From Ignavibacteriales bacterium (GTDB taxonomy: Bacteria > Bacillota > Clostridia > Acetivibrionales > UBA4821): a DNA stretch of 64,000 nucleotides. How positions within the stretch are numbered: position 1 is the first letter of the stretch; each line of letters starts with the position of its first letter. A program made the position numbers and the translations under genes. The notes under the pieces were generated by a model that saw only the letters and a program-made list of their open reading frames with translations, was not told the DNA's origin and did no database searches. The stretch spans positions 38,629-102,628 of the forward strand of contig JBLNBO010000003.1 of assembly GCA_050260055.1 (NCBI GenBank). The letters run 5' to 3'. This document shows, piece by piece, positions 33,489 through 56,348 of the stretch.

Positions 33489-33565
<77 letters not shown>

Positions 33566-35932: not shown

Positions 35933-36005
35933 GGTCCATCTGTGGGTTCGAATCCCCCTAAACAAAAAAAGACACTTTCGTGTCTTTTTTTATGGCGGAG
36001 AGGGT
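35933..36005. repeat. 73-bp direct repeat copy 2, overlapping the 3' end of the intact tRNA-Ser
   Basis: See copy 1. It contains GGTCCATCTGTGGGTTCGAATCCCCC, the hairpin AAAAAGACACtttcGTGTCTTTTT and TGGCGGAGAGGGT. Confidence 0.85.
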
Positions 36006-36081
36006 GGGATTCGAACCCACGTGACGTTGCCGCCAAACTGATTTCGAGTCAGCCCCGTTATGACCACTTCGATACCTCTCC
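35993..36081 (-). tRNA. tRNA-Ser (anticodon CGA), long variable arm
   Basis: The reverse complement reads GGAGAGGTATCGAAGTGGTCATAACGGGGCTGACTCGAAATCAGTTTGGCGGCAACGTCACGTGGGTTCGAATCCCACCCTCTCCGCCA. Anticodon loop is CTCGAAA. Confidence 0.9.
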
Positions 36082-36092
36082 ATAATTAATAT

Positions 36093-36539: not shown

Positions 36540-36668
36540 AACTCATCCTTAAGGATTTCATTCCTACAGCAAAGTTAATTCTACAACACTACTATTTAAG
36601 CTGTCAAGACCATAGGAAAACTCGCTTATTATAATATAACAAGCGAGTTTTCCTATGCTAATCTTACA

Positions 36669-37457
36669 CTATTGAATTGTATTTGCCATTTCTTCTACTT
36701 CGGTTGCTATGGTTTCATAGTCGCTAACCTTTATATCTTTACTTGATTCATAGCCATACTTTTCAGAAACATTCCTTATTATATCTGTATTGGCATTAGC
36801 AAGAGCATATAGCCGCTTTCTTTGCGGTTCAGTTATTGTTTTTTCTTCTTTCCCTTCCCCCGAAGAAGCATCTCCTTTTGGCTCGCCGTCTGCCTGCTGC
36901 ATTTCCTCATTTGTGTATATCCCGCTAAGATCATTTGGAAATGCCTTTCTTAGCGCTAATGCCTCTGCACATTTTCCAAGCATAAGATATGGCATCTTCT
37001 GCCACATAAATCCGTGGGTTTCCCCAGGGTAATATTCCTTCCATCTTGCAGTTGCCGTAAATGGGCATCTTTGATTGCTTATCATTTTATAAACTGTAAC
37101 TGTAGCTTTGTTTGGCGCAATAGCATCCTCCGTATCATAAACCGGGTCATCAATTCCGGCAAGCTGGCCTGTTCTTTCTGCTATTGCCCTATATCCATCA
37201 ATTCCGGTTTGGACAGTGATTGTGCTTTTAAAACTTCCGTCATTTTGCCTTGTCTTTCTTTTTACAAAATGAATTTGCTTGGTAAGCGGGTCTAATCCAG
37301 TTCTTTGGGCTATAAATAAAAACAGTTTAAGCTCATCATCTGTTGCATCTTTAGCCGAAGACGCCCTGATTAACTCAATCTGCTCCGGGTTGAACCCATA
37401 AGGAACTTCAATATTGCTTATGCTTATATTTTTATTATTCAAAACTTTCTCCTCCAA
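36669..37457 (-). CDS. recT: RecT-family single-strand annealing recombinase (phage-type), orphan
   Basis: GIDGYRAIAERTG, W(K)EY and MPYLMLGKCAEALALRKAFP are typical RecT blocks, followed by an acidic C-terminal tail. Confidence 0.85.
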   Translation of the reverse strand: MEEKVLNNKNISISNIEVPYGFNPEQIELIRASSAKDATDDELKLFLFIAQRTGLDPLTKQIHFVKRKTRQNDGSFKSTITVQTGIDGYRAIAERTGQLAGIDDPVYDTEDAIAPNKATVTVYKMISNQRCPFTATARWKEYYPGETHGFMWQKMPYLMLGKCAEALALRKAFPNDLSGIYTNEEMQQADGEPKGDASSGEGKEEKTITEPQRKRLYALANANTDIIRNVSEKYGYESSKDIKVSDYETIATEVEEMANTIQ

Positions 37458-37791
37458 TTTATTGTTTCAGTATTTACTAACTAATATTAGTTTCTACATA
37501 ATTTTTAAAAAAATGACACATTTAGAGTAAAAATGAAAGTAAATAAATTGAAAAGAGAAGTCTTATTAATAATTTAAATTTTAACGTATTGGAAAGATTA
37601 TCTAAAAGATGTATAATATTTATATATGTCTTTATATTATTTTTATCGTACAGCTCACACTTCACAAAATTTTGTAATGTTTTTCATCTTCATACGATTA
37701 AAGCTAGCTTTATTAAGATGGCCTTTATAGGTTCTTAGAACTTATAGTCGTTATATAAAAAAGATTCCCCAAAAAGAAAGGAGATAATAAA

Positions 37792-38145
37792 ATGTCAGAC
37801 AGTATCAAAATGATTAAGGAAACCAAAAAAGGGCTGAACCTATCTGAAGTTACCATTCCACGAGAATTAATTCCTCTCCAGGAACTTCTTGCAGCCAGAG
37901 CTCATGATGAATGGGTTTTAGAAATGCTCAAGCAGGAATGGAAGTTTGGGCCGGTCCATGATGAAAGTAAAAAGCAAAGCCCTCTTTTGATGAACTATAT
38001 CAGTCTTTCTGATGGAGAAAAACAAATCGCGCGGGATAAAGTTCATGATACCATTGCCGTAATGATAGTATATGGTTATGAAATTACTTCTGCGCCAGTT
38101 ACTTTTCTTGGCCCTCGGAGCTTGTATCCTTATCCGAAGAGCTGA
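37792..38145 (+). CDS. RyR-domain protein
   Basis: 117 aa. LAARAHDEWV....Q.W.FGP..DE..K..PLL..Y..LS..EK..(A)RD resembles the bacterial RyR repeat. Terminator hairpin at about 38151-38178. Confidence 0.6.
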   Translation: MSDSIKMIKETKKGLNLSEVTIPRELIPLQELLAARAHDEWVLEMLKQEWKFGPVHDESKKQSPLLMNYISLSDGEKQIARDKVHDTIAVMIVYGYEITSAPVTFLGPRSLYPYPKS

Positions 38146-38182
38146 AAAACAAAAACACCTTGCATCGCAAGGTGTTTTTGTT

Positions 38183-38258
38183 TGGTGCGCCTGAGACGAC
38201 TCGAACGTCCGGCCTGCGGTTTAGGAAACCGTTGCTCTATCCACTGAGCTACAGGCGC
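38183..38258 (-). tRNA. tRNA-Arg (anticodon CCT)
   Basis: The reverse complement reads GCGCCTGTAGCTCAGTGGATAGAGCAACGGTTTCCTAAACCGCAGGCCGGACGTTCGAGTCGTCTCAGGCGCACCA. Confidence 0.9.
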
Positions 38259-38413
38259 ATAGTTTAGCAAAAATTATTTTACATGGCTAGCCGCATTTTG
38301 TCAATCCTAACGCATTCGGTAAGCCCTTTTAAGTTTTAAGAATTAATTCTTGTCGACATTCTCCCGCTTTTATGGTAATATCTCTTATCATAATAACTTG
38401 ACAGGAGAAGAAA

Positions 38414-39004
38414 ATGCCATTTATTCCAGCATACATCTATAATAATAAGCTGTATCTTAATATAACAAACCTGTGTTCAAATAATTGCTCTTTCTGTATC
38501 AGGAACAGCTCTCAAGGTGTTGGCCATGATCTTGTGCTGGATAGGGAGCCGAGTTCAAGCGAAGTTCTGGAAGCAATTGAGAAGCTTCCGGTCTCTGAAG
38601 AGGTAACCTTTTGCGGCTTCGGCGAGCCCCTATTAAGACCAGAAACACTTATAGAGGTAGCAAAGGAAATAAAAAAGAGATACGGCTCAAAAATTAGAAT
38701 TAATACAAACGGCCTGGCTGAAAAAACCTTAAATAAAAAAATAATCCCTTCTCTTGAAGGAATCATTGATACTATATCTATTAGCCTTAATGCACATGAT
38801 GCAGAATCCTACTTTGAGGTTTGCAAGCCTAAAACCGGAACAGCTTCATATCAAGCAGTTATCGATTTCGCGCGTGAGAGCAAGAAATATATCCCTAATG
38901 TAGCGCTTTCGGTAGTAGATATTCCCGAAATTGATATAGAAAAGTGCAAGCAAATCGCACAAGAACTTGGCATTGAGCTTAGAATACGCCATCTTATTCC
39001 TTAA
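38414..39004 (+). CDS. small radical SAM protein (TatD-associated type)
   Basis: CSNNCSFC cluster motif near the N-terminus, a GFGEPL glycine-rich SAM motif, 196 aa. Confidence 0.75.
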   Translation: MPFIPAYIYNNKLYLNITNLCSNNCSFCIRNSSQGVGHDLVLDREPSSSEVLEAIEKLPVSEEVTFCGFGEPLLRPETLIEVAKEIKKRYGSKIRINTNGLAEKTLNKKIIPSLEGIIDTISISLNAHDAESYFEVCKPKTGTASYQAVIDFARESKKYIPNVALSVVDIPEIDIEKCKQIAQELGIELRIRHLIP

Positions 39005-39464
39005 TTATTCTTCCATTATGCCATTTAAAATGAGCAAGCAGGCTAGTTAAGCCAATTCCAATAAATCCTCCAAAAGTATCTATCAAAACATCTGTTACCT
39101 TAGCCGCTCTTCCCGGCACAAACGCCTGATGAATCTCGTCTGTTACTGCATAAATCAAGCAAATCAGTATGGAATATAGGAATAACTTCTTATCTTTAAT
39201 TCCAGTTGAAGATAAAGCTAAACATAATAACATCCCCAACACTGCATATTCCAAAGTATGCGCAATCTTTCTAATAAAGTAATTCCAACCGTTATTCAAA
39301 AATTCTCCCTTAAAGCCAAAGTTGTTAGCAATTCTGTTTATTTCTTGAATTACAAAAAGGCTTTGTGTATCTGACTGTATTGCAGGCTTACTGGAGAATT
39401 GAAATATTATGCTCATCCAGATTATTGCTAAAAACCAATAAATTATTACTCTTTTTAAGTCCAT
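38994..39464 (-). CDS. VanZ-family membrane protein
   Basis: 156 aa with 4 TM segments. The K..H..EY..LG and TDE.HQ.FVPGR motifs are present. Confidence 0.75.
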   Translation of the reverse strand: MDLKRVIIYWFLAIIWMSIIFQFSSKPAIQSDTQSLFVIQEINRIANNFGFKGEFLNNGWNYFIRKIAHTLEYAVLGMLLCLALSSTGIKDKKLFLYSILICLIYAVTDEIHQAFVPGRAAKVTDVLIDTFGGFIGIGLTSLLAHFKWHNGRIIKE

Positions 39465-39489
39465 TAAAAACTCTCCGTCTTTTTTAAGC

Positions 39490-40308
39490 TTAATTCTTTT
39501 TAAACAGCTTTTTGAAGAAACTATCTTTCACTTCTGTCTTTGATTTTTCGCCTTCTTGAGTATTAAGAGCTATTTCAGTATTAGCAAGATACGCAACCCT
39601 CTTTATTAGGTTCTGTATGGATGAATTGTATTTATTTTTTTGCTTTACAAATTCATTCGTCTTTTTTTGATTATAATAATCTCTCATGCTTGAAGAATAA
39701 ACAACACTTATGTGTTCTATCTGGTACATCTTTTTAATTTCGCCGGAATCCGGAAAAACATTATCTTCAAACATATTTATAACATTTATTTCTTTTACAT
39801 CCTTATGCTGATTGTAGGATTTGTACCATTCTAGTATGTAAGGATTCTGCGTCATAACATTTAGAAACACATCACAGTTAGAGTAAATAAGCCTGCTCAA
39901 TTCGCTCTGCGTTCCTGCTGTAGTATCCACAATTACAATATCAAAGGTTTTACGCGCAACCTCTATTATTTTTAAAACCTCTTCAGTATTCTTTTTAAGA
40001 TAATCTGAATTGTCTATACGGCTAGGATTTACAAGTCTTAAATTAGGCTTTAAAACTTCTGTATTTTCAATTAGAAGTTCTGATGTAAGCTCTCTGTTTC
40101 GCACTATAGAAATCAAATCATCAATACAATTTGAAGTTTTTCGGTCAACTAAGAACTCCATTTCTCCAAATAAATAATTAAAATCAAATATAAGTATGCT
40201 CAATTCCGTGTAATTAGCGAGAGTATATCCGATATTGTAAACAAGAGATGTTATTCCTTGTCCATGTTTGACACTGCCGACTCCAATAAACTTTCCCGTT
40301 TTCTCCAT
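39490..40308 (-). CDS. ParA/MinD-like P-loop protein with a degenerate Walker A
   Basis: The N-terminus GVGSVKHGQGITS aligns to the deviant Walker A xKGGxGK(T/S), but the GK Lys is replaced (G-I-T). A Walker B-like FDIVIVDT is present. Confidence 0.45.
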   Translation of the reverse strand: MEKTGKFIGVGSVKHGQGITSLVYNIGYTLANYTELSILIFDFNYLFGEMEFLVDRKTSNCIDDLISIVRNRELTSELLIENTEVLKPNLRLVNPSRIDNSDYLKKNTEEVLKIIEVARKTFDIVIVDTTAGTQSELSRLIYSNCDVFLNVMTQNPYILEWYKSYNQHKDVKEINVINMFEDNVFPDSGEIKKMYQIEHISVVYSSSMRDYYNQKKTNEFVKQKNKYNSSIQNLIKRVAYLANTEIALNTQEGEKSKTEVKDSFFKKLFKKN

Positions 40309-40436
40309 CTTGTACCTCCAGATTTTTTATACAAACTAATTATACCAAAAAATCAGATGTAAAGAACCTTTTTTTCAAATTCCCAAGGCTTTACTTATGG
40401 CTCTGCTTGTTGTATAATATGGTTTCAGTAAGCATA

Positions 40437-40513
40437 TGCGCCCATAGCTCAGCTGGATAGAGTGTTTGGCTACGAACCAAAAGGTCGGGGGTTCGAATCC
40501 CTCTGGGCGTGCC
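40437..40513 (+). tRNA. tRNA-Arg (anticodon ACG)
   Basis: GCGCCCATAGCTCAGCTGGATAGAGTGTTTGGCTACGAACCAAAAGGTCGGGGGTTCGAATCCCTCTGGGCGTGCCA. A hairpin+T-run terminator follows at about 40520-40562. Confidence 0.92.
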
Positions 40514-40573
40514 AAAGCAAAAAGGAAAGTACATTCTACAAATGATGTACTTTCCTTTTTCGTTTTAAGTCAA

Positions 40574-41176: not shown

Positions 41177-41416
41177 AAACATCCTCCTTATTTCTTTTTT
41201 ATCCTTAAAAACAGATATTAAATTTTTCAAATAACTTATTGACATTCTTATTACCCATCTATGCAAAGACCTTGCTTTGATGCAGACTACAGTCATATAT
41301 TTTAAAAGCTTATTTCATAAAATTATATCATGATTTTAATATATATGCTAGTATGAATTGGTGTTTTTAGGGATTCAATTTCTAATTTTTCAACATATAA
41401 AATAACGTTCCATTAT

Positions 41417-41461
41417 GCCTACGAACCAAAAGGTCGGGGATTCGAACCCTGAGAGGGCGTG
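41417..41461 (+). repeat. partial duplicate of the 3' half of tRNA-Arg(ACG) (att-like remnant)
   Basis: GCCTACGAACCAAAAGGTCGGGGATTCGAACCCTGAGAGGGCGTG. A 21-nt exact match to the tRNA begins in the anticodon loop, then the T-arm and acceptor diverge. It is followed by its own terminator, GAACGTCCtaaacGGACGTTTTT. Confidence 0.8.
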
Positions 41462-41587
41462 AAGCGTTAATGGAACGTCCTAAACGGACGTTTTTAGCTT
41501 CGCGTAAGGAGCCGGGACCCGTTCGCGGGTGGCGACGTAGGCAAATGCGAGCTTGCCGAAGCATTTGATAATCCCTCTGACCTGCCA

Positions 41588-41627
41588 TAAAAAACTGCTG
41601 ACATTATATAATGTCAGCAGTTTTTTT
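41588..41627. terminator. bidirectional intrinsic terminator
   Basis: An A-run, then the stem CTGCTGACAT / ATGTCAGCAG, then a T-run. Confidence 0.7.
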
Positions 41628-42954: not shown

Positions 42955-42984
42955 GCTTTTCCTCCTTGCACTTTTATGATTATC

Positions 42985-43050
42985 TGCATTCTCGTTGATT
43001 GGGCTGCGGTGCAGTCCTTGTGAGAGTGCATTGTTATATGTAGTAGCGAC
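42985..43050. repeat. GC-rich intergenic element, short copy (E)
   Basis: It shares TTGATTGGGCTGCGG and GAGAGTGCATTGTTATATG..GCGAC with elements A and B. An internal inverted repeat TGCATTCTC / GAGAGTGCA is present. Confidence 0.7.
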
Positions 43051-43780: not shown

Positions 43781-43820
43781 AAAGATTCCTCCCTAAAAAA
43801 TATGTCGCTATTGCATATAG

Positions 43821-44040
43821 CATCCCACACTCTCGGCGTCACAGAGTTGGACTTGCAAAGCCCTTCTTCCTCGGTGGCGGCTTGTCCGCCCAGCGATTGG
43901 GATGCGGCACAAGCTTCCCGTTGTTGATCGCTCGGTATTGGGGCTGCTCCTCAAATAATGCCAGCAAACCTATACGAGAGTGAATTGTTAAGTGATGTCG
44001 GACGTCTAATAATTCAGAAGCAACCATGGATGGGTGCTCC
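43821..44040. repeat. GC-rich intergenic element, long copy (A)
   Basis: About 55-60% GC against an AT-rich background. It aligns by eye with 44806-44998 (block CACTCTC.GC.TCACAGAG.TGGAC..GCAA.GCC.TTCT.C.T.GG.GGCGGCTTGTCC.CCCAGCGATTGGG) and contains several short hairpins. Confidence 0.75.
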
Positions 44041-44052
44041 TAATAATTAGTA

Positions 44053-44727
44053 TTAGTTATCGTTTATACAATCAATAAATTTGACACCCAAAGCTGTAAG
44101 TTTATGTATTATAGTTGACGGAGTGACACCAAAAACCATCCCATGTACAATTTTCATTTCTACAAAATTAAACTGTAGTAACTTATTCGCATTCCCTTCC
44201 AATTCTTTATGTTCTGAAGTATTGATACAATAACCATTGACTAAGTTAGTATTTAAGAAATTTAATAGCTTAATATCATCATTTGTAAGAAAATCTACAT
44301 ATTTTGAAAACATTGAAAATTCATCCCAAGAAATCTTACTCTCAACAAATCCTTTAATTAACTTTGAAATAATATTAGTCCTATTCAATTCTTCAAGCCT
44401 ATCGAGAATAATTATTATTCTTTCAGTAACCTTATCTTGGAATTTCGGATCCCGCATTTTGTATTTAAATTCATTATATTTTATAGTATCGATACTCTCA
44501 TTTTTAAACTCACATATAAATTTTATTAGTTTTTTAGTAAAAAATCGTTCTTTAATATTTAAACCTGTCTTGCAGACTGCAACTATTGATTTTATTACAG
44601 GTATTTCTTTTGCTACTCCTTCATTAAATAATGAGTCTAGCCCAACTTCAGTTATATCAATTGCAACATCTTTTGTTCCACTAGTTAATTCCTCTGCTAA
44701 TCCTTTTTGTAAATTTTCAATCTTCAT
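44053..44727 (-). CDS. hypothetical helical protein (Abi-like flavour, unverified)
   Basis: 224 aa from ATG 44727 (the track ORF uses TTG 44736). No catalytic motif recognised. Confidence 0.5.
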   Translation of the reverse strand: MKIENLQKGLAEELTSGTKDVAIDITEVGLDSLFNEGVAKEIPVIKSIVAVCKTGLNIKERFFTKKLIKFICEFKNESIDTIKYNEFKYKMRDPKFQDKVTERIIIILDRLEELNRTNIISKLIKGFVESKISWDEFSMFSKYVDFLTNDDIKLLNFLNTNLVNGYCINTSEHKELEGNANKLLQFNFVEMKIVHGMVFGVTPSTIIHKLTALGVKFIDCINDN

Positions 44728-44805
44728 AATTCTCAACCCCTTAAAATATATCCAATTTTTAGAGCAATCGCATATATACGCGTCCCTTTTACGACCAAAT
44801 TCATC

Positions 44806-44998
44806 TAACGTCCTGCACTCTCAGCATCACAGAGCTGGACCAGCAAGGCCATTCTCCTTGGCGGCGGCTTGTCCTCCCAGCGATTGGGGTGTGGAGCGGA
44901 GCCTTCTTCCTTGCTTTTCTCACCGCGACTTTACGGTAGCGCATTGTTATAAGACGTGTGCCGGGCTCCAAAGCTTAGCGGTCACGGATGGCCGCTTC
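44806..44998. repeat. GC-rich intergenic element, long copy (B), abutting the stop codon of the 483-aa gene
   Basis: Direct repeat of element A. Its terminal 58 nt are repeated in inverted orientation at 46493-46556. Confidence 0.75.
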
Positions 44999-46450
44999 TT
45001 AATCTTTACACCTTACTTTTTTCAGCTTTTCTTTAGTTGCCTCTTCATCATTCACAGATATCTCAGGAAAATTCACAATCTCTCCAGAGGTATTTTTAAT
45101 CGCTTTTCTACATTCCTTTGAGAATTTAGAATCTTTTGTATCTTTTATATATTTAGCAACATTGAACAAATCAATTGTTCTGATTAGTGCTATATTTGAT
45201 CGTTTTGCCCCACTAAAGCACTTTTCAGTAAAAAACTCAGTTCTTTCCTCTGGTGACAAGAGCCTGTAGGCATTACCAAAAAGTACCCCTTTAGCATACT
45301 CATTAACTTCATCGCGCGCAAAATCTTCTTGAATATTTCTTTCAAGTTGGCTTAATTTTTCTATGTTTATAGCTTTATTATCCCTTCCCTCAGCTTCTCC
45401 AATGAATCGCCCTTCATCACCTACAAAAACCACATCAAATTCAGATTCATCATTTTGAAATCCTTCTGCTTTAAAACCCAATATTTCGAGTGCATGAATA
45501 ATTGATAGTTCAAGAGGTTTTCCCTGTTCATACAATAATCCCCGAAGTAAACCTTCCTTTTCAATCTCTACTTCGATATTAGTTTTTTGTTCCTTAAGCT
45601 TTTCAATTTTGTCATTAATAATAGATATCTTTTCAGTTAGCTTATTTTCAATACCAAGCCTAAATTTTCTGTCTTTTGCCCAGGCTGGTAATGGTGATAC
45701 TGCTGCTCCTTTTTTTATTGCCTTATCAATTTCAATAAGGCAAGATATATACTTTTTGCCAAAAGCTTTTCCTTCCTTCGTCCACTCCCACTCATCTTCA
45801 TCTTCATCAATATATTTAATGAATTTATTCTCGTCGTATTTAATGGGTGGAATAATTAAAATGGCCCCTTTTGAATTTGTAAATTTCGCTGCAACAGTTT
45901 TATTTCCTGATTTGGTAGTTAATAAACTGCTATTAAAATCTCCTTCAAGATAAATTTCAAACGGAGAATATTTCGAGAACCCACCCCAATATGTGGATAG
46001 AACACCAATATCTTTTGTAGCCCTAATTTCTTCTCCAGATACCGGAATAACTTTTCCAATTTTAACAGGAAATACATCATAACTATTCAAAGGTCGAACA
46101 ATATTTGTGTATACTGTTGATTTCCCCGTTCCAGAAGATTGTTTTTCTCCAGTGTAAACACAAACTTCCTCAGGTTTACTTAAAAATATGAATATAGTCT
46201 TCCCAGAATCAAAAGCCTCCTTCAACTCTCTTTGCCAGTGCAAAATAACTTCAGAACTTCTAAAAGAATATGTCTGATCTAACACAGGTTTTCCATTATA
46301 CCTTTCATTATAATGATAATTATAGGGAATACCCGGATTAAATATTATTATGTCCGCATCTAATAATGAACGATCAGATTCTAATGGAATGTATTCATCA
46401 TCATCACCTGGCAAAGAATAATTTACGCAAAAAATCTTTTTTTCTGACAC
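44999..46450 (-). CDS. hypothetical 483-aa protein: unknown N-domain, central coiled coil, C-terminal nuclease-like block
   Basis: Coiled coil KLTEKISIINDKIEKLKEQKTNIEVEIEKE. It is followed by GKPLELSIIHALEILGF......SEFDVVF....GRFIGEAEGRDNK, which resembles a PD-(D/E)xK-type core. That assignment is an inference. Confidence 0.55.
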   Translation of the reverse strand: MSEKKIFCVNYSLPGDDDEYIPLESDRSLLDADIIIFNPGIPYNYHYNERYNGKPVLDQTYSFRSSEVILHWQRELKEAFDSGKTIFIFLSKPEEVCVYTGEKQSSGTGKSTVYTNIVRPLNSYDVFPVKIGKVIPVSGEEIRATKDIGVLSTYWGGFSKYSPFEIYLEGDFNSSLLTTKSGNKTVAAKFTNSKGAILIIPPIKYDENKFIKYIDEDEDEWEWTKEGKAFGKKYISCLIEIDKAIKKGAAVSPLPAWAKDRKFRLGIENKLTEKISIINDKIEKLKEQKTNIEVEIEKEGLLRGLLYEQGKPLELSIIHALEILGFKAEGFQNDESEFDVVFVGDEGRFIGEAEGRDNKAINIEKLSQLERNIQEDFARDEVNEYAKGVLFGNAYRLLSPEERTEFFTEKCFSGAKRSNIALIRTIDLFNVAKYIKDTKDSKFSKECRKAIKNTSGEIVNFPEISVNDEEATKEKLKKVRCKD

Positions 46451-46492
46451 AAATCATACTCCTCTCCAAAATGTTTTTTGCTACCCCAATAA

Positions 46493-46556
46493 ATGCCATC
46501 CGCATGCCACGAGCATGGCTGCGAACACAAATATCCGGCACATGTCCTTATAGCTA
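46493..46556. repeat. inverted partial copy (C) of the end of element B
   Basis: GCCATCCG...CCGGCACATGTCCTTATAGC matches the reverse complement of 44941-44996 (GCCATCCG...CCGGCACACGTCTTATAAC). Confidence 0.65.
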
Positions 46557-46707
46557 TTAAATCATCAAACTATGTCGGGTTAAGTTCTTGTACAGCCTGT
46601 TAACCGACACATAATCTTTCTTTGTTAATTTCCTAAACTATACCAAAATTCACTATATTTTGCAATCCGTAAAAGTTGTCTTTATGCCTTAGTAAGAGGC
46701 AAATCAC

Positions 46708-46747
46708 TCTTCTGCAAAAACTGCTTTTTGGTGTCGCTCTAAAACTT
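46708..46747. repeat. 40-nt direct repeat, copy 1 (flanks the 271-aa gene)
   Basis: TCTTCTGCAAAAACTGCTT is a 19-nt exact core, with about 34/40 identity overall to 47861-47900. Confidence 0.7.
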
Positions 46748-46805
46748 CTCCTAAAAGAAAAACCGTCCTTGAAGGACGGTTTTAAATTAATTTTCATAAG
46801 ATTGG

Positions 46806-47621
46806 CTAAGCAATCCCCAGCTCTCTATGCATTCTTTCTATAAGCAGCTTACTTAAATAAGCATACCGTTGGGGAGTCAGATATTCCTCTATCTTCCCAA
46901 GAGCTTCTGCGAAACTCTTCCCCTGGACTTCGGCGACATAGCCGTATTCCGAATCCGTGAGCCTGAAAAAGACTCGGCCGTTTTCCATTCTCACCTTGAA
47001 CTTTTTGCCAGATAATACCCAGGCATCAAGGTAGCTTTCTGCCGCGGATGTTCCAGTAAGGTATACACATTCATACGGAAGCCCGCCTGCGAGATAATCG
47101 TTATTAGCTTCTACCAAAGCAGGACGAGCGCTGTAGGACTCGCCGTAACCGACCAGCGTTCCCCGGGAATTCTCAATTCGAATAACACGGAGGCCTCCTC
47201 CAGAGCGAAAAGCCCTGATGGTATTGCCATCTCGAAGGCTATCATTCAAGCCTTTGAATCCTCCCGCTTTCTTTCTCAGGGGAATAATCGACAGCAGATA
47301 CGATACGGTTTCAGAAGCAGAGAATTTTGTAATAATAGCTAAATTCCCTCCGGAGAAACTGATAATATCGCCTTGTGATAAGTCCACTGATAAATCCCCG
47401 CCGAAGCTGATTTGGATTAGGGCCTTTTCTTGAGATTCAGGCCGTAAGATTACTTCTCCGTTGTAATAAGTTTCGCAATCGCACTCTTTGTTCCACCAGT
47501 TTGCTTTGGTTTTGGCGTTAACTTTGCTGCGAATCTCGACTTCTCTACCAATAACCTGGTTTAGCAAATATCCTACCTGAGGCGCATTTTCTGGGGTCAA
47601 GATAACCTTTCTTAATTTCAT
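46806..47621 (-). CDS. hypothetical 271-aa protein, GC-rich relative to its neighbours
   Basis: Start set at MKLRKVIL (AGGAGGG upstream). Terminator hairpin AAAACCGTCCttgaaGGACGGTTTT at 46758-46786. Confidence 0.55.
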   Translation of the reverse strand: MKLRKVILTPENAPQVGYLLNQVIGREVEIRSKVNAKTKANWWNKECDCETYYNGEVILRPESQEKALIQISFGGDLSVDLSQGDIISFSGGNLAIITKFSASETVSYLLSIIPLRKKAGGFKGLNDSLRDGNTIRAFRSGGGLRVIRIENSRGTLVGYGESYSARPALVEANNDYLAGGLPYECVYLTGTSAAESYLDAWVLSGKKFKVRMENGRVFFRLTDSEYGYVAEVQGKSFAEALGKIEEYLTPQRYAYLSKLLIERMHRELGIA

Positions 47622-47860
47622 CCAAGAAACCCTCCTTTTTTTATCCTTTTTTATGAATATCCTGTTTGAGCAATAAGCACACAAAAGAAATTTTATATCT
47701 GACAATACTCAGCATCACTTCCTGCATGCACTAATATGAGCTGTTTGCTCTGGCAGCATATTTCATAAATTAAAAAAGAAAACTATTTATATGATACTAC
47801 GGCTGGAATAAGATTACAATAACTATTTCTATAGCCCAAAAAGCCCGGAAAGTCTAATCT

Positions 47861-47900
47861 TCTTCTGCAAAAACTGCTTATTGATATTGCTTTAAAGCTT
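47861..47900. repeat. 40-nt direct repeat, copy 2
   Basis: See 46708-46747. Spacing between the copies is 1153 bp. Confidence 0.7.
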
Positions 47901-48046
47901 TATCCCAATTCGAGCAATCCAGAAATATATTTAATTTATCCTGTTAAAAAAACCTTCCTAATGATAAAATTTTTTTTAGAAAAGCTGCAACCTTTTTGTA
48001 AGTCAACTGTTTTACTTTATGAAAGGGCTAACGGGGGGGTGAAAAA

Positions 48047-48607
48047 TTGGATGAGAGAAAGCTTATAAATGATGCGCGGGCTGGAGACAAGTCTGCTTTT
48101 GAAGAACTGATAAAAAGATATTATTTCCCTCTGCAGAAGTTTTTTATAAACCACGACTTGAACCTTTCTACCGCACAGGATTTAACACACGATACAATAA
48201 TAAAGATAATTGAAAATATAGAAAACTTCATACCTTTTAGGGAATCCAGTTTTTCATGCTGGGTATTCAGAATTGCATACAACAATATGATGAATTATTT
48301 CAGCAATCATTCAAACAAAATGATGCCCGAAGATATTGAAGAATACCAGGAAATCAAATCTCCCCTTAAAAGCGTAGAAGAAGAAATTATAGAAAATGAA
48401 AACCATTATTTAATAAATGAAGGCCTTAATTTATTAACAAAAGAAGATAAGACAATAATAGTGCTTCACTACATAAATGAACTAAGTTACAAAGAAATTG
48501 GAGAAATATTAAGTATAAACGAAAAAAAGGTTAAATGGAAACTTCATAATGCCCTTGAACGTTTAAGAAAGCTCATGAAAAAGGAGGCTTTAATCAATGA
48601 AATGTGA
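48047..48607 (+). CDS. ECF-type sigma-70 family RNA polymerase sigma factor
   Basis: Region 2 (F..L...Y...L..F) and a region 4 helix-turn-helix (LSYKEIGEILSINEKKVKWKLHNALERLR). TTG start after GGGGGGTG. Confidence 0.88.
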   Translation: MDERKLINDARAGDKSAFEELIKRYYFPLQKFFINHDLNLSTAQDLTHDTIIKIIENIENFIPFRESSFSCWVFRIAYNNMMNYFSNHSNKMMPEDIEEYQEIKSPLKSVEEEIIENENHYLINEGLNLLTKEDKTIIVLHYINELSYKEIGEILSINEKKVKWKLHNALERLRKLMKKEALINEM

Positions 48608-49046
48608 TGAATTTAAACAAAAAGTTATAGAATTCCTTTCTGAAGATGCGGTTTTGCCTAATGACCTTAAGTCTCATGTAAATGAATGTAAAACATGTAA
48701 AGAATTTTTGGTAGACTCAAAATTATTGCTTAAATCCTTTAAGGATAAAAGCTGCGATGTAAGTAATGATATGCAAGAAGTAGAAACCTTTATTACATCA
48801 ATTAATCCTTTATTAAATAAGAAATCTCTTCAAATAAAGGAAACAAGGCAAACCAGGAAAGAAAGTATTGCTTTAGCTTTGATAACAATCTTCTTCATCG
48901 GATTAATCCTCTTTGCACTTTATTCATACTTAATAAATGGCAGCTTATTTTTGATAGCCCTTTTAGCAGTATACACACTTTTCTCATCAATAATATCTTT
49001 AATTTTTTTACCAACAATAAGAAAGTATAGGAGGAATGTTTTATGA
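48597..49046 (+). CDS. anti-sigma factor (zf-HC2) with C-terminal TM segments
   Basis: It overlaps the sigma gene by 11 nt. N-terminal H-x3-C-x2-C (HVNECKTCKEF) and two TM segments. Confidence 0.7.
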   Translation: MKCDEFKQKVIEFLSEDAVLPNDLKSHVNECKTCKEFLVDSKLLLKSFKDKSCDVSNDMQEVETFITSINPLLNKKSLQIKETRQTRKESIALALITIFFIGLILFALYSYLINGSLFLIALLAVYTLFSSIISLIFLPTIRKYRRNVL

Positions 49047-50059
49047 TTAAAAAGATAGGTTCATTCTTTGGAAAAGCCTCTAAAATAATAAGTATAATTT
49101 TTTTGGTAATTGCTCTGGTTGGGCTTGCAGGAATGCTGAAAATGAATGCTCTGATTAATGAAGAAATGCCCCAAGAAAACAGTCAGGTTTATAAGACCCT
49201 GATTAAATATCTTGATAATGCAGAAACAAACGGATTTGAAAAGATTAAGCCAATTCCTCTTTTAAGTCAACTGGATTCCGTAGGAATAGTAATTACCGAT
49301 CAGGCAGGCAATATTGTACATAAAACATTTCCGGATAAACCTGACTCTTTGTTTTCAGGAATGACTAAGTTTAATGTCTTTTCAGATTTAGGGGGATTTA
49401 CCTATATTCTTGATCAGAATGATAATTTAAAATGCTTATTCTTTGGGAAATTCGGAAAAAGCAACATACGGAATCAGCAGAAATTATATGAACTTGGGAA
49501 CCCTGAATGGAATAACTTTGTTCTTTCTTCTCCAAATAATATTGGAATGAAGCTAACACGTTTAAATAAAGCCTATGTTAATTCGGACGGCAGTTTTTCC
49601 CTCTCCCGCGATGAAAAAATGAAAAATCCAGTTGCTTATCCATGCGAAACTATAATAGTGAAGTCAAGCGCAGGAAAGTTCAATCTCTACTTTTTCCGGA
49701 TGCCGCATTTTGGCTTGTTTGAGATGATAAACGAAGGTTATTTTGCAGAATTTATTATTGACCCATTTTCATTCTTCCAAGAAAATGAATTTAGAGAAAT
49801 TGTTCTTTCAGACCATGTCAGCATCGTAACAAAACACCAGGTGTATAGAGATATCTTTTTCATAGCTATGATAATTGCTTTACTTATATCCTTAATCTTT
49901 GTTGTAGTATGGGTATTCATAGATGCAAAAACAAGAAGTCTCCCCAGGCTTCCATGGGCATTACTGGTTCTTCTTACAAATCTAATCGGCATAATAATCT
50001 ATCTGATCATAAGACATCCGGGAAGCTCTTCGGCCATTCCTGAAACAAAAAATGTTTAA
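49043..50059 (+). CDS. membrane protein with a C-terminal PLD-nuclease-N-like (PLDc_N) TM hairpin
   Basis: ATGA overlap with the anti-sigma gene. C-terminal WVFIDAKTRSLPRLPWALLVLLTNLIGIIIYLIIR. Confidence 0.55.
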   Translation: MIKKIGSFFGKASKIISIIFLVIALVGLAGMLKMNALINEEMPQENSQVYKTLIKYLDNAETNGFEKIKPIPLLSQLDSVGIVITDQAGNIVHKTFPDKPDSLFSGMTKFNVFSDLGGFTYILDQNDNLKCLFFGKFGKSNIRNQQKLYELGNPEWNNFVLSSPNNIGMKLTRLNKAYVNSDGSFSLSRDEKMKNPVAYPCETIIVKSSAGKFNLYFFRMPHFGLFEMINEGYFAEFIIDPFSFFQENEFREIVLSDHVSIVTKHQVYRDIFFIAMIIALLISLIFVVVWVFIDAKTRSLPRLPWALLVLLTNLIGIIIYLIIRHPGSSSAIPETKNV

Positions 50060-50110
50060 GTATATCTTTAAAGAAAAAGCTTCGCTGACGCGAAGCTTTT
50101 TCTTTAAGCT

Positions 50111-50770
50111 TTATTCTTCTTCCGGCAAGAGCAGTTCCATTTGTTTAATAAATTCAGCGGCCTCGATGAATTTTTCATCCAACTGGGTGCTTCCGGTGAG
50201 TTCTTTGTAATGGCGGCGAATTATTACGACTGTCTGCATAATAAGCTTTATTGAATTGAGCAGCCCTTTTTTGGACTCAACAACATAATACTCTATGCCG
50301 CATTCGTCAAGGATTCTTCTGAAGCCCTGGCCCTGCTCTTCAGCAACGTCCCTGTCCCCCTGGGTACGGCCTTCCATCTCAAAGTCAAGGTCTCCGCGGT
50401 TTACAAAGATATTAACATTGTTGTACTGCTTGCTATATTCAAGAATAAGGTTCTTGTATGCTTCTGCATAACTTGCCTTCGGATCAAGATAGAACAAGCT
50501 TACCAGCGGTGAAGCCTCACTAACAACAATTTCAACCTCTCCATCCAGATTTTCAAGTATCTTGGTATGTTTTCCAAAGATATAAATCTGCCGCTTTAGG
50601 GTCCAATACCGTTTTTCCCAGACCAGGCTTTTGGGAAACTCGATTGCAGCTTCAACAACCATTCCGAAGACTTTAAGTATCCACATCAATCCGTACAGCA
50701 GAGTACTTTTGCCAGTTCCGGCCCCTCCAAACAGATTTACAACCAACGTCTTTTTGCCCTCATTTTCCAT
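50111..50770 (-). CDS. P-loop NTPase (AAA_28 / kinase-like), GC-rich
   Basis: Walker A FGGAGTGKST. Start set at MENEGKK (GGAG 9 nt upstream). A bidirectional terminator lies at about 50069-50098. Confidence 0.6.
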   Translation of the reverse strand: MENEGKKTLVVNLFGGAGTGKSTLLYGLMWILKVFGMVVEAAIEFPKSLVWEKRYWTLKRQIYIFGKHTKILENLDGEVEIVVSEASPLVSLFYLDPKASYAEAYKNLILEYSKQYNNVNIFVNRGDLDFEMEGRTQGDRDVAEEQGQGFRRILDECGIEYYVVESKKGLLNSIKLIMQTVVIIRRHYKELTGSTQLDEKFIEAAEFIKQMELLLPEEE

Positions 50771-51070
50771 TCCAACCATCTCCTTTTTTACTGTCCTTTG
50801 CTTTCTTCGCAACCTTTCTCCCATTTCGGCAGAGCCTTTTTGATAAACCTTAGCAACAAGTGTTTCAGCTAATATAATTTAATATTGGTATATATCTTTA
50901 AAATAATATCACACTCTCTTTTAGCGGTCAATGTATAACAGCTATTATCTTCTTTAATTTTCCATTTTCTTCATTGATTTATTACTGTGTATTTTTTGCG
51001 TAAAAATATGTAGAAATACTGGAGTAGACTATTTCTCTGTGGTATAATACGTAAGTTGTTTAAATATTAA

Positions 51071-52684
<1,614 letters not shown>

Positions 52685-52696
52685 GGAGAACAAACT

Positions 52697-52942
52697 ATGG
52701 AGATAAAAAGCGGTAAATATAAGCATTACAAGGGCGGACTATATCAAGTAATCGGAGTTGCAAAACATAGTGAAACCCTAGAAGATTATGTCGTTTATAT
52801 GTCTCTTCATGAATGCCGTACCGGAGGCATAGGCTCTTTTTGGATAAGACCAAGATCAATGTTTGAGGAAGTAATCAATCACGAAGGAAAAGACGTTTTT
52901 AGATTTGAATATATTGGAGAAAATAATATTCAAGACTCTTAA
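52697..52942 (+). CDS. DUF1653 domain protein
   Basis: 81 aa. YKHYKGGLYQV.G.A.HSET.E..VVY pattern. Confidence 0.75.
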   Translation: MEIKSGKYKHYKGGLYQVIGVAKHSETLEDYVVYMSLHECRTGGIGSFWIRPRSMFEEVINHEGKDVFRFEYIGENNIQDS

Positions 52943-53053
52943 ATAAATAATATCTTTTATACCCATAGGGCGCCAACCCACTAAGTCTATTATTGTATAT
53001 TTTAAATCACTCTTGGAGAAACTTTTAAGAATTATTATCCAGGAGTGATTTTT

Positions 53054-53611
53054 TTGAATTATGAATTAGTTGATGAATTCAGGCTTAACTGGGTTATTAC
53101 AGTAATTTTGAATATTGCCGCAGGTATAGTATTTGCAGCCGGCTTTTACGGTTTTTTGTATTTATATTTTACATTTTCAACAGATATTCTCGGTGAGAAA
53201 CTGCTAGCAAATTCTAATCTGTGGATAGCATATGCGGCAGTGCTTTTTCAGGCAGTGCTTCATGAATACAGTCATGGAATCGGTTATAGGCTAAGCGGCG
53301 GCAAGGTAAAATACGGAATCAAATGGTTGTGCCCTTATTGTATGGAAAAGTCGGGCCTGTATTATCCAACAAACAATTTTATTTTAACCCTCATACTTCC
53401 ATTGATAACCGGAACAATTGCGGCAGTATTGGCTTTCATTGCTTTCCCCCAATATCTTTACTATATCGTCATCTGTGTATTAACAAACATCTCCGGTGCG
53501 GCCGGAGATATTATGATGCTGTTTTTTATAATATTAAAAAGGAACAGAGGCCAGTATATTAAAGATGAGCCTTACGGGTTCAGTATGTATAGAAGGGTTA
53601 TCCTTGAATAA
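53054..53611 (+). CDS. DUF3267-type putative membrane zincin peptidase
   Basis: TM segments and an HEYSH (HExxH) motif. Start is uncertain: TTG 53054 lies 8 nt after AGGAG, while the track uses GTG 53045. Confidence 0.6.
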   Translation: MNYELVDEFRLNWVITVILNIAAGIVFAAGFYGFLYLYFTFSTDILGEKLLANSNLWIAYAAVLFQAVLHEYSHGIGYRLSGGKVKYGIKWLCPYCMEKSGLYYPTNNFILTLILPLITGTIAAVLAFIAFPQYLYYIVICVLTNISGAAGDIMMLFFIILKRNRGQYIKDEPYGFSMYRRVILE

Positions 53612-53644
53612 CCTGCGAATTTTACCTAACAAAAAAGAAGGGTT

Positions 53645-54217
53645 CTATTTTTCTCCCTTCTCTTTCATATAGTATGTTTCAACCTTCATGTTCAGCGACC
53701 ATTCTTCAACGCTAATTATCCTTAGTTCTCCCTGTGTTATTTTCATTTTAATTGGACTTGCCTTTAAGTAATTTATAAAATCAATTATATCCTGTTTTTT
53801 TCCTGTAACATTAACTCTTATAGGTTGCTTGCCATATTTCTTGCCGGCCTCTGTTTCCTTACCCTGAGCTTCCAGATTTGAGATTTGTAAATTGTGAGCT
53901 TTTACATAGTAGTAGAGCTCCAGATTTAATTGATTTATTTGATTTGCATTGGGAATTTGTTTGCCAATATCCTTTAACTCATTTTCCATCTTTGATAGTT
54001 TATCAGTGTTTCCTTTAATGTCTTTTCTTATCATATCAAGCTCTGAAAGCTTTTTTGCCTTTTCTTCGATTTTTACTTGAAAGGTATCTATTTTAATAAC
54101 CTGATTGCTAAAGACATAGGTAAAGTATGCGTACCCGATTCCAGATACGACAAGAATACCAAATATTAATTTTTGCACCCTATTCTTGTCCAATATACTT
54201 CCCCCAAATTCCTTCAA
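53645..54217 (-). CDS. PilO-like type IV pilus assembly protein (second copy)
   Basis: N-terminal TM, a coiled coil and a C-terminal alpha/beta domain, located after pilM-pilN. Confidence 0.55.
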   Translation of the reverse strand: MKEFGGSILDKNRVQKLIFGILVVSGIGYAYFTYVFSNQVIKIDTFQVKIEEKAKKLSELDMIRKDIKGNTDKLSKMENELKDIGKQIPNANQINQLNLELYYYVKAHNLQISNLEAQGKETEAGKKYGKQPIRVNVTGKKQDIIDFINYLKASPIKMKITQGELRIISVEEWSLNMKVETYYMKEKGEK

Positions 54218-54234
54218 AGCTAATTCTTTAAAGC

Positions 54235-54762
54235 TTAATCTTTCATACTGTACAAGTCTACTTCTATTCTCCCTGAGTAATTTTTTGGATTTGCCTGAAT
54301 ATAAAAGCTCTTGATTACAAGCTTTCTATCAAACCCTTTAAAATAATTTATTGCTGATTTAATCTCATCAAGAGTACCGCTTAACTGAATTGAGAATCTA
54401 GTAATATTAAATTTTTCATTTTCAGTAGGGAAGCTCATATCAACATTTTCAGCCTTGATATTGCCTTCTTTTATCAGCTTATACATTTCCATAGTGATAT
54501 TCCCGCTTTCACTTTTGGAAGGGATTATCTGATTAAGCTGTTTTATCTGCTTCTCATAATCATTAATCATTCTTTTTGCTTCTGTTTTCTTTTCGCTCCA
54601 GACTTCTAACTTTTTGGCCTGCTCATATTTGAATTTATATTCATGGTTAAGAACCTCTATCCTCTCATTTGAAATAGAAAGGTAGTATTCATAAACTCCA
54701 TAGCCGACTCCCAAAAAAACTATTACGGCAAAAATTATCTTCTGGATTTTTTCCTTATTCAT
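54235..54762 (-). CDS. pilO: PilO-like type IV pilus assembly protein
   Basis: Same architecture as the neighbouring copy, directly downstream of pilN. Confidence 0.6.
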   Translation of the reverse strand: MNKEKIQKIIFAVIVFLGVGYGVYEYYLSISNERIEVLNHEYKFKYEQAKKLEVWSEKKTEAKRMINDYEKQIKQLNQIIPSKSESGNITMEMYKLIKEGNIKAENVDMSFPTENEKFNITRFSIQLSGTLDEIKSAINYFKGFDRKLVIKSFYIQANPKNYSGRIEVDLYSMKD

Positions 54763-54789
54763 ATCCTAAGCACCTTTCTTTCCTGTTGT

Positions 54790-55359
54790 CTAGTTACTGC
54801 TAAGCTTTAATTTCCTAAGCTTGAGTTTAAAACTAATCTCTGTTTTCTTATCAGCAATAGGAATGGTAGGCATATCAACCTGCTCAAAAATATTAAGCTT
54901 ATTTAAGTTGTCGACAAGTGCATTTGCTTCAATAGGATTATTGATAATATAAGACACCGATACCTCGAGTTTGTCATTAAATCCGATGTATGTTATTTCG
55001 ACTCCTTGAGGTACTGCCGAAGTTAGTTTATCTATAAGGGGAACTATATCAAATTCATTCTTGCTTATTTCCTCAATTATTTTCTTTTTGTTTTCAAGTT
55101 TTTCTTTTGCGGCATTTAGATTATTATAAAGGTCTTGAATATCTTTGAAGAATTCAATTTCTCTATCCAGATTATCGATTCTCTCTTGAAGAGAAAATAT
55201 TTTGAGTTCTGGAACATAATAAATACCAAAAGAAGTAAGGGTAAAGATAGCTGTTGCAAATGCAACTAAAAACATTCTTTGTACAGCCTTCCTTTGTTTA
55301 ATCACAAAATCAGGCACAAAATTTATATTCTTATTAACTTGCTTCTTTTTCTGCTTCAT
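54790..55359 (-). CDS. pilN: PilN-like type IV pilus assembly protein
   Basis: The N-terminal INF(V)P motif precedes a TM segment and coiled coil. ATG 55359 forms an ATGA overlap with the pilM stop. Confidence 0.7.
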   Translation of the reverse strand: MKQKKKQVNKNINFVPDFVIKQRKAVQRMFLVAFATAIFTLTSFGIYYVPELKIFSLQERIDNLDREIEFFKDIQDLYNNLNAAKEKLENKKKIIEEISKNEFDIVPLIDKLTSAVPQGVEITYIGFNDKLEVSVSYIINNPIEANALVDNLNKLNIFEQVDMPTIPIADKKTEISFKLKLRKLKLSSN

Positions 55360-56348
55360 TTGTCCGACCCTCCCATCAGCAAACCAAAACAACCGAAGTA
55401 TCTTTCAGGATGGAACTTGCTTTTCATCTTAAGAGGCATTGTAGTTGTCAAAAAGCTCTTAGAAAACTCTGTATTGCCGGGCCTAACCTTTATACCAAGA
55501 TTGTCTTGTATATACTCTGCGGCTTGGCTTAACATAGCCCCTCTTCCAATAATATATACCTCTTCCAGGCTTTTCCCGTGATGCCTTGTAGAAAAGAAGT
55601 TAAGATAGTTTTTCAATGTATCAACGGCAGATGTAAAATCTTCTCCAAGCTCTTCTATCTGAAGATTATTTAAGTGCACTTGCTCATCTATGCCGTCTTC
55701 CGGCTTTGGTATGGCAAAGCTGATTATTGAGTTTATAAACAAACTTTTACCTTCAAGCATCAAAAATTCAGTCTGATCATATGTCATATCCATTATTGCA
55801 CAATCATTGCCAACCAGCTTTATAAATAAATCGCTTACTGCATCAGAGTATATGCTTATAATTTTGGGCTTTAGCTTGCATTTTAAAAATATCTCTGCGT
55901 AATATTCTACAGTGCTCTTTGGAATTGCCACCAACAAAACAATGTAGTATGCCTTCTCATCCTTTTCGTTAATTTCCTGAATTTTATAATCAAAAAGATA
56001 TTCCTCTGGCTTAATTGGGAAATACTGTTTTATGCTAAGCTTCATAAAATTTTTCAAATCTTTAAATTCCATATTAGGGAGTTTGACCACACGGGTAATG
56101 ATTCCTTTGTCTGAAATGCAAAGCTTGTACTTGTTTTCTTTAAGACCGTTGTTTTTTAAAGCTTTACGAACAAGACCCGCCACAGCTTCCCTGCCTGCAG
56201 GGTCCTTGGACCTTGCAAATTCTTCAGGCACATCCAGCTGTACAGCTTTTGCTACTTCTATCTTATTTTTCTTTTTGTTATATCTGCATTCAGTAAACTT
56301 ATATGTGTTTTCCTGTATACTGATGCACAATTCCCATGAACCTGACAT
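55356..56348 (-). CDS. pilM: type IV pilus assembly ATPase-fold protein PilM
   Basis: 330 aa with an actin-like ATPase fold pattern, located upstream of pilN. Confidence 0.85.
   Translation of the reverse strand: MSGSWELCISIQENTYKFTECRYNKKKNKIEVAKAVQLDVPEEFARSKDPAGREAVAGLVRKALKNNGLKENKYKLCISDKGIITRVVKLPNMEFKDLKNFMKLSIKQYFPIKPEEYLFDYKIQEINEKDEKAYYIVLLVAIPKSTVEYYAEIFLKCKLKPKIISIYSDAVSDLFIKLVGNDCAIMDMTYDQTEFLMLEGKSLFINSIISFAIPKPEDGIDEQVHLNNLQIEELGEDFTSAVDTLKNYLNFFSTRHHGKSLEEVYIIGRGAMLSQAAEYIQDNLGIKVRPGNTEFSKSFLTTTMPLKMKSKFHPERYFGCFGLLMGGSDK

Follow-up and report, generated by a model that had tools for sequence, protein, structure and literature searches.

Integron attC sites are characterised by conserved AAC/GTT triplets, R and L boxes, an unpaired central spacer (UCS) and a variable terminal structure (VTS) (PMC4889954). 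They are cleaved between A and C of 5'-RYYYAAC-3', and their published lengths range from 53 to 152 nt (PMC7439510). Clusters of attC sites lacking integrases (CALIN) have been defined, and integrons have already been found in Ignavibacteriae (PMC9024848). Here, we analyse a 64-kb stretch of contig JBLNBO010000003.1 from an Ignavibacteriales bacterium (hereafter the window), in which the gene for a 483-amino-acid (aa) protein is bracketed by inverted arms of about 60 nt. From the sequence alone, this roughly 1.6-kb unit had been read as a miniature transposable or invertible module with terminal inverted repeats (TIRs), or as a pdif-like module flanked by inverted recombinase sites. The combined sequence evidence makes it very likely that the supposed TIR module is instead an integron-type gene cassette, situated in an integrase-free, CALIN-like cluster of three cassettes. 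The unit is neither a TIR element nor a module of the pdif type, nor is it an inverton.

Architecture of the proposed 483-aa gene cassette

On the minus strand of the window, genes for proteins of 299 aa, 483 aa, 227 aa, 242 aa and 121 aa (DUF4180) form a row in which they are separated by GC-rich islands. The islands have a GC content of 55–61%, compared with about 36% for the window overall and roughly 30% for the surrounding genes. Those located 3' of the 483-aa and 227-aa genes, which we call e2 and e1, share about 80% identity over 94 nt and are related from end to end. Read on the gene strand, e2, e1 and a third island, e0, consist of an R'' box resembling RYYYAAC, the triplet AAT, a 9-bp L box (L'' GCRCTMYCG), a variable core and L'. 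In e2 and e1, L' (YGAGAGTGY) is followed by a 5-nt spacer and an R' box of the form GTTRRRY (GTTAGAT in e2). Judged by this order of elements, the architecture of e2, e1 and e0 is that of integron attC sites, and the window appears to contain a CALIN-like cluster of three cassettes, which is small and apparently a decaying array. Two other interpretations of the islands were discarded. A coding remnant was rejected on the basis of frame-breaking indels between e1 and e2, and a structured RNA gene was dropped, as RNA folding of the three intergenic regions was no better than that of shuffled sequences (z = –0.8, +1.5 and –0.8). Rfam, searched at the gathering threshold and at E ≤ 10, gave no match in e2, e1 or e0.

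The cassette of the 483-aa gene can be broken down into the following parts:

44809..46553, minus strand: whole 483-aa gene cassette, 1,745 nt, with boundaries set by the rule from 40 family cassettes and by the divergence point of contigs L023 and L026 (see below)
46535..46554, minus strand: cassette 5' end, the outer part of the right arm, reading GCTATAAG, a GACA internal loop and TGTGCCGG
46495..46527, minus strand: irregular GC-rich hairpin region near the cassette start, which holds the inner block and corresponds to the 5' hairpin of many family members
46459..46467, minus strand: ribosome-binding site GGAGAGGAG, read from the sequence, 8 nt before the GTG start
44999..46450, minus strand: cargo coding sequence, 483 aa, GTG start
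44978..44995, minus strand: 3' hairpin right behind the stop codon, GCGGCC-ATCCGTG-ACCGC, with an RTCCRTG loop; holds the inner block of the left arm
44946..44964, minus strand: outer helix strand CCGGCACA, internal loop CGTC and R'' core TTATAAC, identical to the outer block of the left arm
44803..44952, minus strand: attC of the cassette (e2), 150 nt, nhmmer score 155.7 bits

Along the gene strand, e2 runs from R'' TTATAAC through AAT and L'' GCGCTACCG (44934–44942) into a conserved GC-rich core, and from there through L' TGAGAGTGC (44815–44823) and the spacer AGGAC to R' GTTAGAT (44803–44809). The 5' junction base of the cassette is G46554, its first base is 46553 and its last base is G44809, the G of its own R' core. 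At the cassette start, GCTATAAG represents the R' core, with GCT replacing GTT, while TGTGCCGG forms one strand of an 8-bp outer helix. In terms of sequence, then, the left arm is best described as the R'' end of the cassette's own attC and the right arm as the first 20 nt of the cassette. The two arms would be the stem halves of a single folded site, split by a crossover at G/TT of R', and would pair with each other only when the cassette is circular.

Both arm sequences are present in the window, and the outer block of the claimed inverted repeat is real. GTTATAAGACGTGTGCCGG (44946–44964, plus strand) is the inverted match of CCGGCACATGTCCTTATAGC (46535–54), with 8 + 8 matching bases around an internal loop of 1-nt asymmetry. 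In the alignment, GCTATAAG-GACA-TGTGCCGG (46554 to 46535, minus strand) faces GTTATAAG-ACG-TGTGCCGG (44946–44964, plus strand). A degenerate pattern of this block occurs at only 2 places in the 64 kb, and at least two matches were found in 0 of 100 shuffles. Inverted local alignment of the two whole intergenic regions yielded a score of 24, compared with 17.5 ± 2.0 for shuffled sequences, 2 of 200 of which reached it. The inner block, GCCATCCG (46495–46502) and CGGATGGC (44985–44992), is likewise an exact match, but no better than chance. Across 41 cassettes (40 array cassettes plus the 483-aa gene cassette), the inner region at positions 21–100 scored 14.0 in inverted alignment for cognate and 13.9 for non-cognate pairs, with the cassette studied here ranking 9th of 41. 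A second paired region at the inner block was rejected on these equal scores. The inner 8-mer is located in a hairpin whose RTCCRTG loop motif recurs across the attC family. The observation of inverted arms is partly confirmed, in that the outer block holds and the inner block fails.

A chance likeness of two GC-rich intergenic hairpin regions would be in line with the chance-level inner 8-mer and with the modest whole-region score (2 of 200 shuffles). However, the outer-block pattern is unique to the two sites (0 of 100 shuffles), and an identical positional rule is seen in 40 independent cassettes, so that we regard this explanation as extremely improbable. As for the geometry of the module, the arms do enclose one coding sequence plus its ribosome-binding site, but they are not the limits of the unit: the cassette extends 135 nt past the left arm, through attC, to G44809. 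It had also been considered that the arms might simply be parts of a larger repeat family without any boundary role. This applies to the left arm insofar as its R'' box is the first element of attC. It fails for the boundary role, as the arms carry boundary information and the right arm begins at the recombination junction.

Cognate pairing and the inferred crossover point

The attC family of the window comprises a total of 62 sites on 21 sequences, namely 20 AT-rich contigs and the window itself. A scan of species-representative genomes with an 18-base core as query, in a collection that does not include the source metagenome-assembled genome (MAG), gave 17 chance matches in GC-rich genomes and one true one. 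The latter, L015, is a 4.75-kb contig of 34% GC that has four co-oriented copies between single genes. A metagenome scan with an L'-R' pattern revealed 19 further AT-rich contigs, and nhmmer with the family profile detected up to about 14 co-oriented copies per 13 kb. Among viral contigs, there was no match, or one chance match within a 1,570-aa open reading frame (ORF). L015 (JBLMYQ010000069.1) contains cassettes of this attC family only and is binned in a MAG labelled Deltaproteobacteria, a label that may stem from mis-binning of a repeat-bounded contig.

On these sequences we located 41 complete cassettes, 40 of them distinct, with lengths of 590–2846 nt (median 1,049). The attC sites measure 90–191 nt, and their length differences (indels) are confined to the centre. 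The longest ORF lies on the attC top strand in 39 of the 40 cassettes. The R'' triplet, which reads GTT in reverse complement, is intact in 38 of 40 distinct cassettes and carries a T to C change at position 2 in the other two. All 40 array cassettes start with GTT; the exceptions, both in the window, are the 5' junction of the 483-aa gene cassette and the R' of e1, which read GCT. The 9-bp L box, GCACTCTCG/CGAGAGTGC, covaries, with T-A in 21 sites and C-G in 25, and the spacer between the R and L boxes places AAT opposite GGGAC, unpaired.

GC-rich hairpins with RTCCRTG loops and covarying stems form a further recurrent feature of these sequences. They are found at 44978–44995 and 44012–44037 in the window and in many cassettes of L015 and L019–L037. 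In about half of the 41 cassettes, such a hairpin stands at a fixed distance upstream of the outer helix and is followed by TCTGAA. A smaller share has a second hairpin of this type, in the same orientation, after CAAAAGG near the cassette 5' end. Hairpins of the RTCCRTG type occur in about 4% of equal-sized coding windows.

For each of the 40 distinct cassettes, we compared two 32-nt stretches: one at the start, numbered from the G of the R' in front of it, and the reverse complement of the one whose last bases are the AAC of the cassette's own R''. Positions 1–9 (GTTAnnnGA) match between the cassette start and its own R'' side. Positions 10–11 form a conserved mismatch, with AA at the start and CA on the R'' side. 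Positions 12–19, at which all four bases are used, pair in 78–90% of cognate but only 25–47% of non-cognate pairs, and the matching ends at position 19. The partner of the outer helix is the flank of the same gene (6.7 of 8 positions), not that of the same repeat (2.8 of 8). The 483-aa gene cassette follows the pairing of the family: its R helix has 8 bp, its loop is slightly asymmetric, and its 8-bp outer helix is perfect. When the cognate start is attached, the predicted energy of the DNA fold drops by about 9.5 kcal/mol, as seen in 37 of 40 cassettes. For the cassette of the 483-aa gene, the predicted values are –43.7/–44.8 kcal/mol with the cognate start and –33.3/–30.2 kcal/mol without it, a gain of 10–15 kcal/mol.

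The position of the crossover can be deduced from a cassette exchange. Contigs L023 and L026 share 99.85% identity across 1,328 nt and split directly after ...GGGACGTTA (GAGTGCGRGACGTTA), that is, after the GTTA of R'. Beyond this point they continue with different cassettes. The covariation of L'' with L' indicates that the two sides of the core remain together with the upstream cassette. Taken with the divergence of L023 and L026, it narrows the exchange to the stretch from L' to position 5, in agreement with G/TT. The split that we observe is just what a crossover at the R' core would produce, and such a crossover thereby accounts for cognate pairing around the gene.

These data suggest the following mechanism. 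Each cassette would consist of one ORF followed by an attC site, with crossover taking place at G/TT in the R' core. The final ~19 nt of the attC stem (TTAnnnG, the 2-nt mismatch and the 8-bp outer helix) would consequently be carried at the cassette 5' end, while their stem partner would be left at the 3' end, upstream of R''. Within an array, the stem halves would flank the gene and appear as inverted repeats; in the excised circle, they would meet and close the folded attC. For the cassette of the 483-aa gene, the expected circle junction would read ...GAGAGTGCAGGACG|CTATAAGGACATG, and the empty site would join 46554 to 44808. We infer that the enzyme carrying out the recombination is an integrase of the IntI type that acts on the folded strand.

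A miniature TIR transposon, a pdif-like Xer module or an invertible segment carrying the 483-aa gene would each explain a single gene bracketed by inverted repeats, but the family data make them very improbable. Miniature inverted-repeat transposable elements (MITEs) and other TIR transposons share with our unit the short inverted termini around a small unit. Here, however, no target-site duplication lies outside the arms when the sequence is read directly, the termini are not conserved between copies, and the left arm runs on into attC without an element end, the true 3' end lying 135 nt beyond it. Moreover, the pairing partner is set by the gene and not by the repeat. For the same reason, we discarded the idea that the repeat itself is a MITE bearing its own TIRs, since its flanks match at only 2.8 of 8 positions. 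Homologues of the 483-aa protein are encoded elsewhere among housekeeping genes or among insertion sequence (IS) and TIR-domain genes, with no flanking inverted repeats, which indicates that the arms are part of the cassette system rather than of the gene.

The pdif modules of Acinetobacter plasmids, likewise, are small gene modules between inverted recombination-site sequences that use tyrosine recombination. Whereas pdif sites are conserved 28-bp XerC/XerD sites, complete on both sides, each side of our unit is half of one structure-specific site. Its outer 8 nt are unique to each cassette and covary with the partner, and therefore cannot be sequence-specific binding sites. In the corresponding test, arm positions 12–19 had no consensus and covaried per cassette. 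Near the gene, we found neither a dif-like 11-6-11 site nor a recombinase of the Xer type, an invertase or a transposase. There is also no sign of inversion, as 39 of 40 cassettes keep the same orientation, and no invertase was found in the window or the related contigs. Of the sequence-only reading, the idea of a one-gene mobile module using site-specific recombination is supported, whereas its transposon TIR and pdif-type inverted-site forms are not.

The complementarity of start and end might instead be kept for a role in RNA, with a 9 + 8 bp stem around each ORF of a polycistronic array transcript and the RTCCRTG hairpins serving processing or stabilisation, alongside or in place of recombination. 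In the array, the cognate halves can pair only across the gene, as RNA can. The pairing is conserved by covariation, and conserved-loop hairpins are present on the coding strand at both ends of many cassettes. Against this, the pairing starts exactly at the recombination core, as the DNA model predicts without extra assumptions, and the whole 5' and 3' regions are as RNA no more stable than shuffles (z = –0.8, +1.5 and –0.8). We consider an RNA role improbable.

Recombinase, cargo and surroundings of the cluster

Assignment to the integron-type cassettes rests on site architecture, cassette-specific covarying pairing and co-oriented ORFs, all of which are directly observed, and on the crossover position deduced from cassette exchange. 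Several findings weigh against it. Neither an integron integrase nor attI was found in the 64-kb window or on the 20 related contigs. We did not identify the extrahelical bases that attC sites typically have: the L box is either a clean 9-bp helix or contains one A.G mismatch (27 of 59 sites), with no bulged bases. There is no preference for bottom-strand stability, the bottom strand being predicted as the more stable one for 15 of the 40 cassettes. The sites are also long, with a stem that reaches 12 nt beyond the canonical 7-bp R box. Finally, the 483-aa gene cassette was not found in a second context.

IntI is a tyrosine recombinase with an extra domain of about 35 aa. Our search covered 24 window ORFs and 6 locus ORFs with Pfam and NCBIfam, and 166 stop-to-stop ORFs by phmmer with an IntI/Xer-like query. 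The sole tyrosine recombinase seen, encoded on contig L036, scored 211 bits against the TIGR02249 cutoff of 265 bits, lacks the ~35-aa insertion and is paired with an IS91 transposase. As neither IntI nor attI was found, we file the locus as CALIN-like and not as a complete integron.

The same array architecture could be served by a non-IntI recombinase, such as the Xer/IntI-like tyrosine recombinase of L036 or an IS91-type rolling-circle transposase. This would agree with the missing IntI and with sites of atypical length that carry an additional outer helix and lack clear extrahelical bases. In addition, the recombinase and IS91 pair adjoins an array in L036, and about 110 nt of its upstream region lie directly 5' of the 483-aa gene cassette. 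However, the AAC/GTT triplets, the R-spacer-L geometry and the GTT crossover are the exact signature of IntI and attC. L036 also has IS4 and REP-type transposases, which points to a pile-up of insertion sequences rather than a dedicated platform, and the other 19 array contigs have no such recombinase/IS91 genes. We therefore view recombination by a non-IntI enzyme as a low-probability alternative to an IntI-type integrase. The transposase genes of L036 (Ga0074197_1004757) lie beside one attC and comprise that of IS91 with its tyrosine recombinase, one of IS4 and one of a REP-associated tyrosine transposase, and in L037 an ISLre2 transposase lies behind the last attC.

The atypical traits of the family, namely the extended stem with its mismatch, the long conserved cores and the terminal hairpins, could mark a distinct variant. 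A more far-reaching version of this idea, which is tentative and which we consider unlikely, takes the family as an enlarged site with an 8-bp cassette-specific outer helix, a conserved 2-nt mismatch and RTCCRTG hairpins on both sides. Its three-way structure would be complete only in the excised circle, where it may act as a switch favouring free over resident cassettes, or it may be an RNA processing or stabilising stem.

The rest of the cluster and its upstream flank are composed of the following features:

46806–47705, minus strand: 299-aa ORF upstream of the cluster, probable ATG at 47621, 48–54% GC against roughly 30% in its neighbours
46571..46680, no strand assigned: segment 5' of the 483-aa gene cassette, not attC, with a hairpin TGTCGGTTAA...TTAACCCGACA and about 70 nt
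44053–44736, minus strand: 227-aa gene
43815..43993, minus strand: e1, attC of the 227-aa gene cassette, 179 nt, R'' ACTTAAC, R' GCTATAT (C at position 2), 177.8 bits
43052–43780, minus strand: 242-aa gene of the third cassette, with Mrr_cat and a topoisomerase-type C4 Zn ribbon
42975..43039, minus strand: e0, short decayed attC of the third cassette (242-aa gene), R' core lost
minus strand: 121-aa gene (DUF4180)

In e0, R'' ATATAAC, AAT and L'' GCACTCTC are intact, and L' has decayed to GAGAATGC. The GCT core at 46553–46554 and 43820–43821 means that two of the three R' cores in the window share an identical T-to-C change at position 2, a position occupied by T in all 40 other cassette starts. 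This change yields a G.T wobble, not a mismatch, on the bottom strand. No attC was found upstream of the 483-aa gene cassette. The GCT at its 5' junction and the lack of an upstream attC suggest that this cassette is probably immobilised and fixed in place.

The segment at 46571–46680 is homologous to L036:3296–3401 (74% identity), which lies upstream of the tyrosine-recombinase/IS91-transposase pair, and to L037:4370–4421 at the end of L037 (90% identity). It looks as if a lone end of a different mobile element had taken the place of the preceding attC. A sigma-70-like match at 46665–46637 (TTGCAA-17-TATAGT, with TG) is directed into the 483-aa gene cassette. Two contigs from independent Logan assemblies, L043 (SRR24085899) and L044 (SRR24085898), correspond to window positions 55994..44880 in the same arrangement, one with 100% and one with 99.82% identity. 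Both end at 44880, inside the e2 attC core. Such ends are typical of repeat-induced breaks, and the shared end suggests further near-identical attC copies in those samples.

In agreement with the sequence-only reading, the cargo has no transposase or recombinase motif, and the 483-aa protein gave no match in Pfam, NCBIfam, PADLOC or a PDB sequence search. Its AlphaFold model (pLDDT 86) consists of an N-terminal fold resembling class-I glutamine amidotransferases (GATase1-like), a long helical linker and a C-terminal PD-(D/E)xK nuclease-like domain with structural matches to the nuclease domains of FokI, HindIII and EndoMS. Based on the model, the cargo is predicted to be a GATase-like and PD-(D/E)xK nuclease protein and no recombinase. 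More than 1,300 homologues of at most 53% identity, all unnamed, are spread across phyla and include Methanosarcina, and the exact protein is annotated in an Ignavibacteriales MAG. The 242-aa protein is a predicted membrane-anchored Mrr_cat restriction endonuclease that matches ZorD/type IV restriction profiles in PADLOC. It is thus a predicted defence-type cargo next to the nuclease-like 483-aa protein. The combination of a GATase-like/PD-(D/E)xK protein with an Mrr-type nuclease fits the view that chromosomal cassettes often carry defence-type functions.

Upstream of the cluster, the 299-aa ORF gave no match in Pfam, NCBIfam or PADLOC, has its own strong terminator at 46759–46783 and is probably foreign DNA. 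On the other side, a diverged direct copy of the 3' half of tRNA-Arg(ACG) (40438–40514) lies at 41416–41460, 0.9 kb downstream of that gene, and resembles an att-like scar left by an integrative element around a single 240-aa ORF. The copy is followed at 41460–41627 by a 120-nt GC-rich stretch without an Rfam match and then a strong bidirectional terminator (41587–41627), with the cassette cluster just beyond. Upstream of the cluster, a RecT-family gene (36669–37457) sits among four tRNA genes (33489–40514), and this region may be a prophage or island remnant.

Comparison with integron cassettes and attC families

With this assignment, an apparently new TIR module becomes a recognisable integron cassette, and a previously uncharacterised, highly homogeneous attC family is documented from AT-rich Ignavibacteriales-like genomes. 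The unusually clean covariation in its extended stem and its recurrent hairpins could make the family useful for testing how excision versus integration is controlled by attC folding outside Proteobacteria.

Like integron and CALIN cassettes, the units described here consist of a single, mostly promoterless ORF and an imperfectly palindromic site with AAC/GTT triplets, R and L boxes, a spacer and a variable core. They are arranged in co-oriented arrays, share the G/TT crossover, by which the first bases of a cassette complement its own R'', and are integrase-free like CALIN. They differ in site length, which here is 90–191 nt, and in a conserved core that is GC-rich in an AT-rich host. Whereas the canonical R box measures 7 bp, the stem here continues for 12 nt beyond it, through the 2-nt mismatch and the 8-bp cassette-specific helix. 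Clear extrahelical bases are lacking, RTCCRTG hairpins are present at both ends of many cassettes, and IntI and attI were not found in the window and 20 related contigs.

Sedentary chromosomal integrons, such as those with the Vibrio cholerae repeats, have homogeneous attC families. The present family differs from the V. cholerae type in sequence and in host lineage, which here comprises Ignavibacteriales and unassigned AT-rich metagenome contigs. The overall organisation is nevertheless alike: both have one long attC type with about 80% similarity between sites, both form large arrays of diverse ORFan cassettes, and in both cases assemblies break at the repeats.

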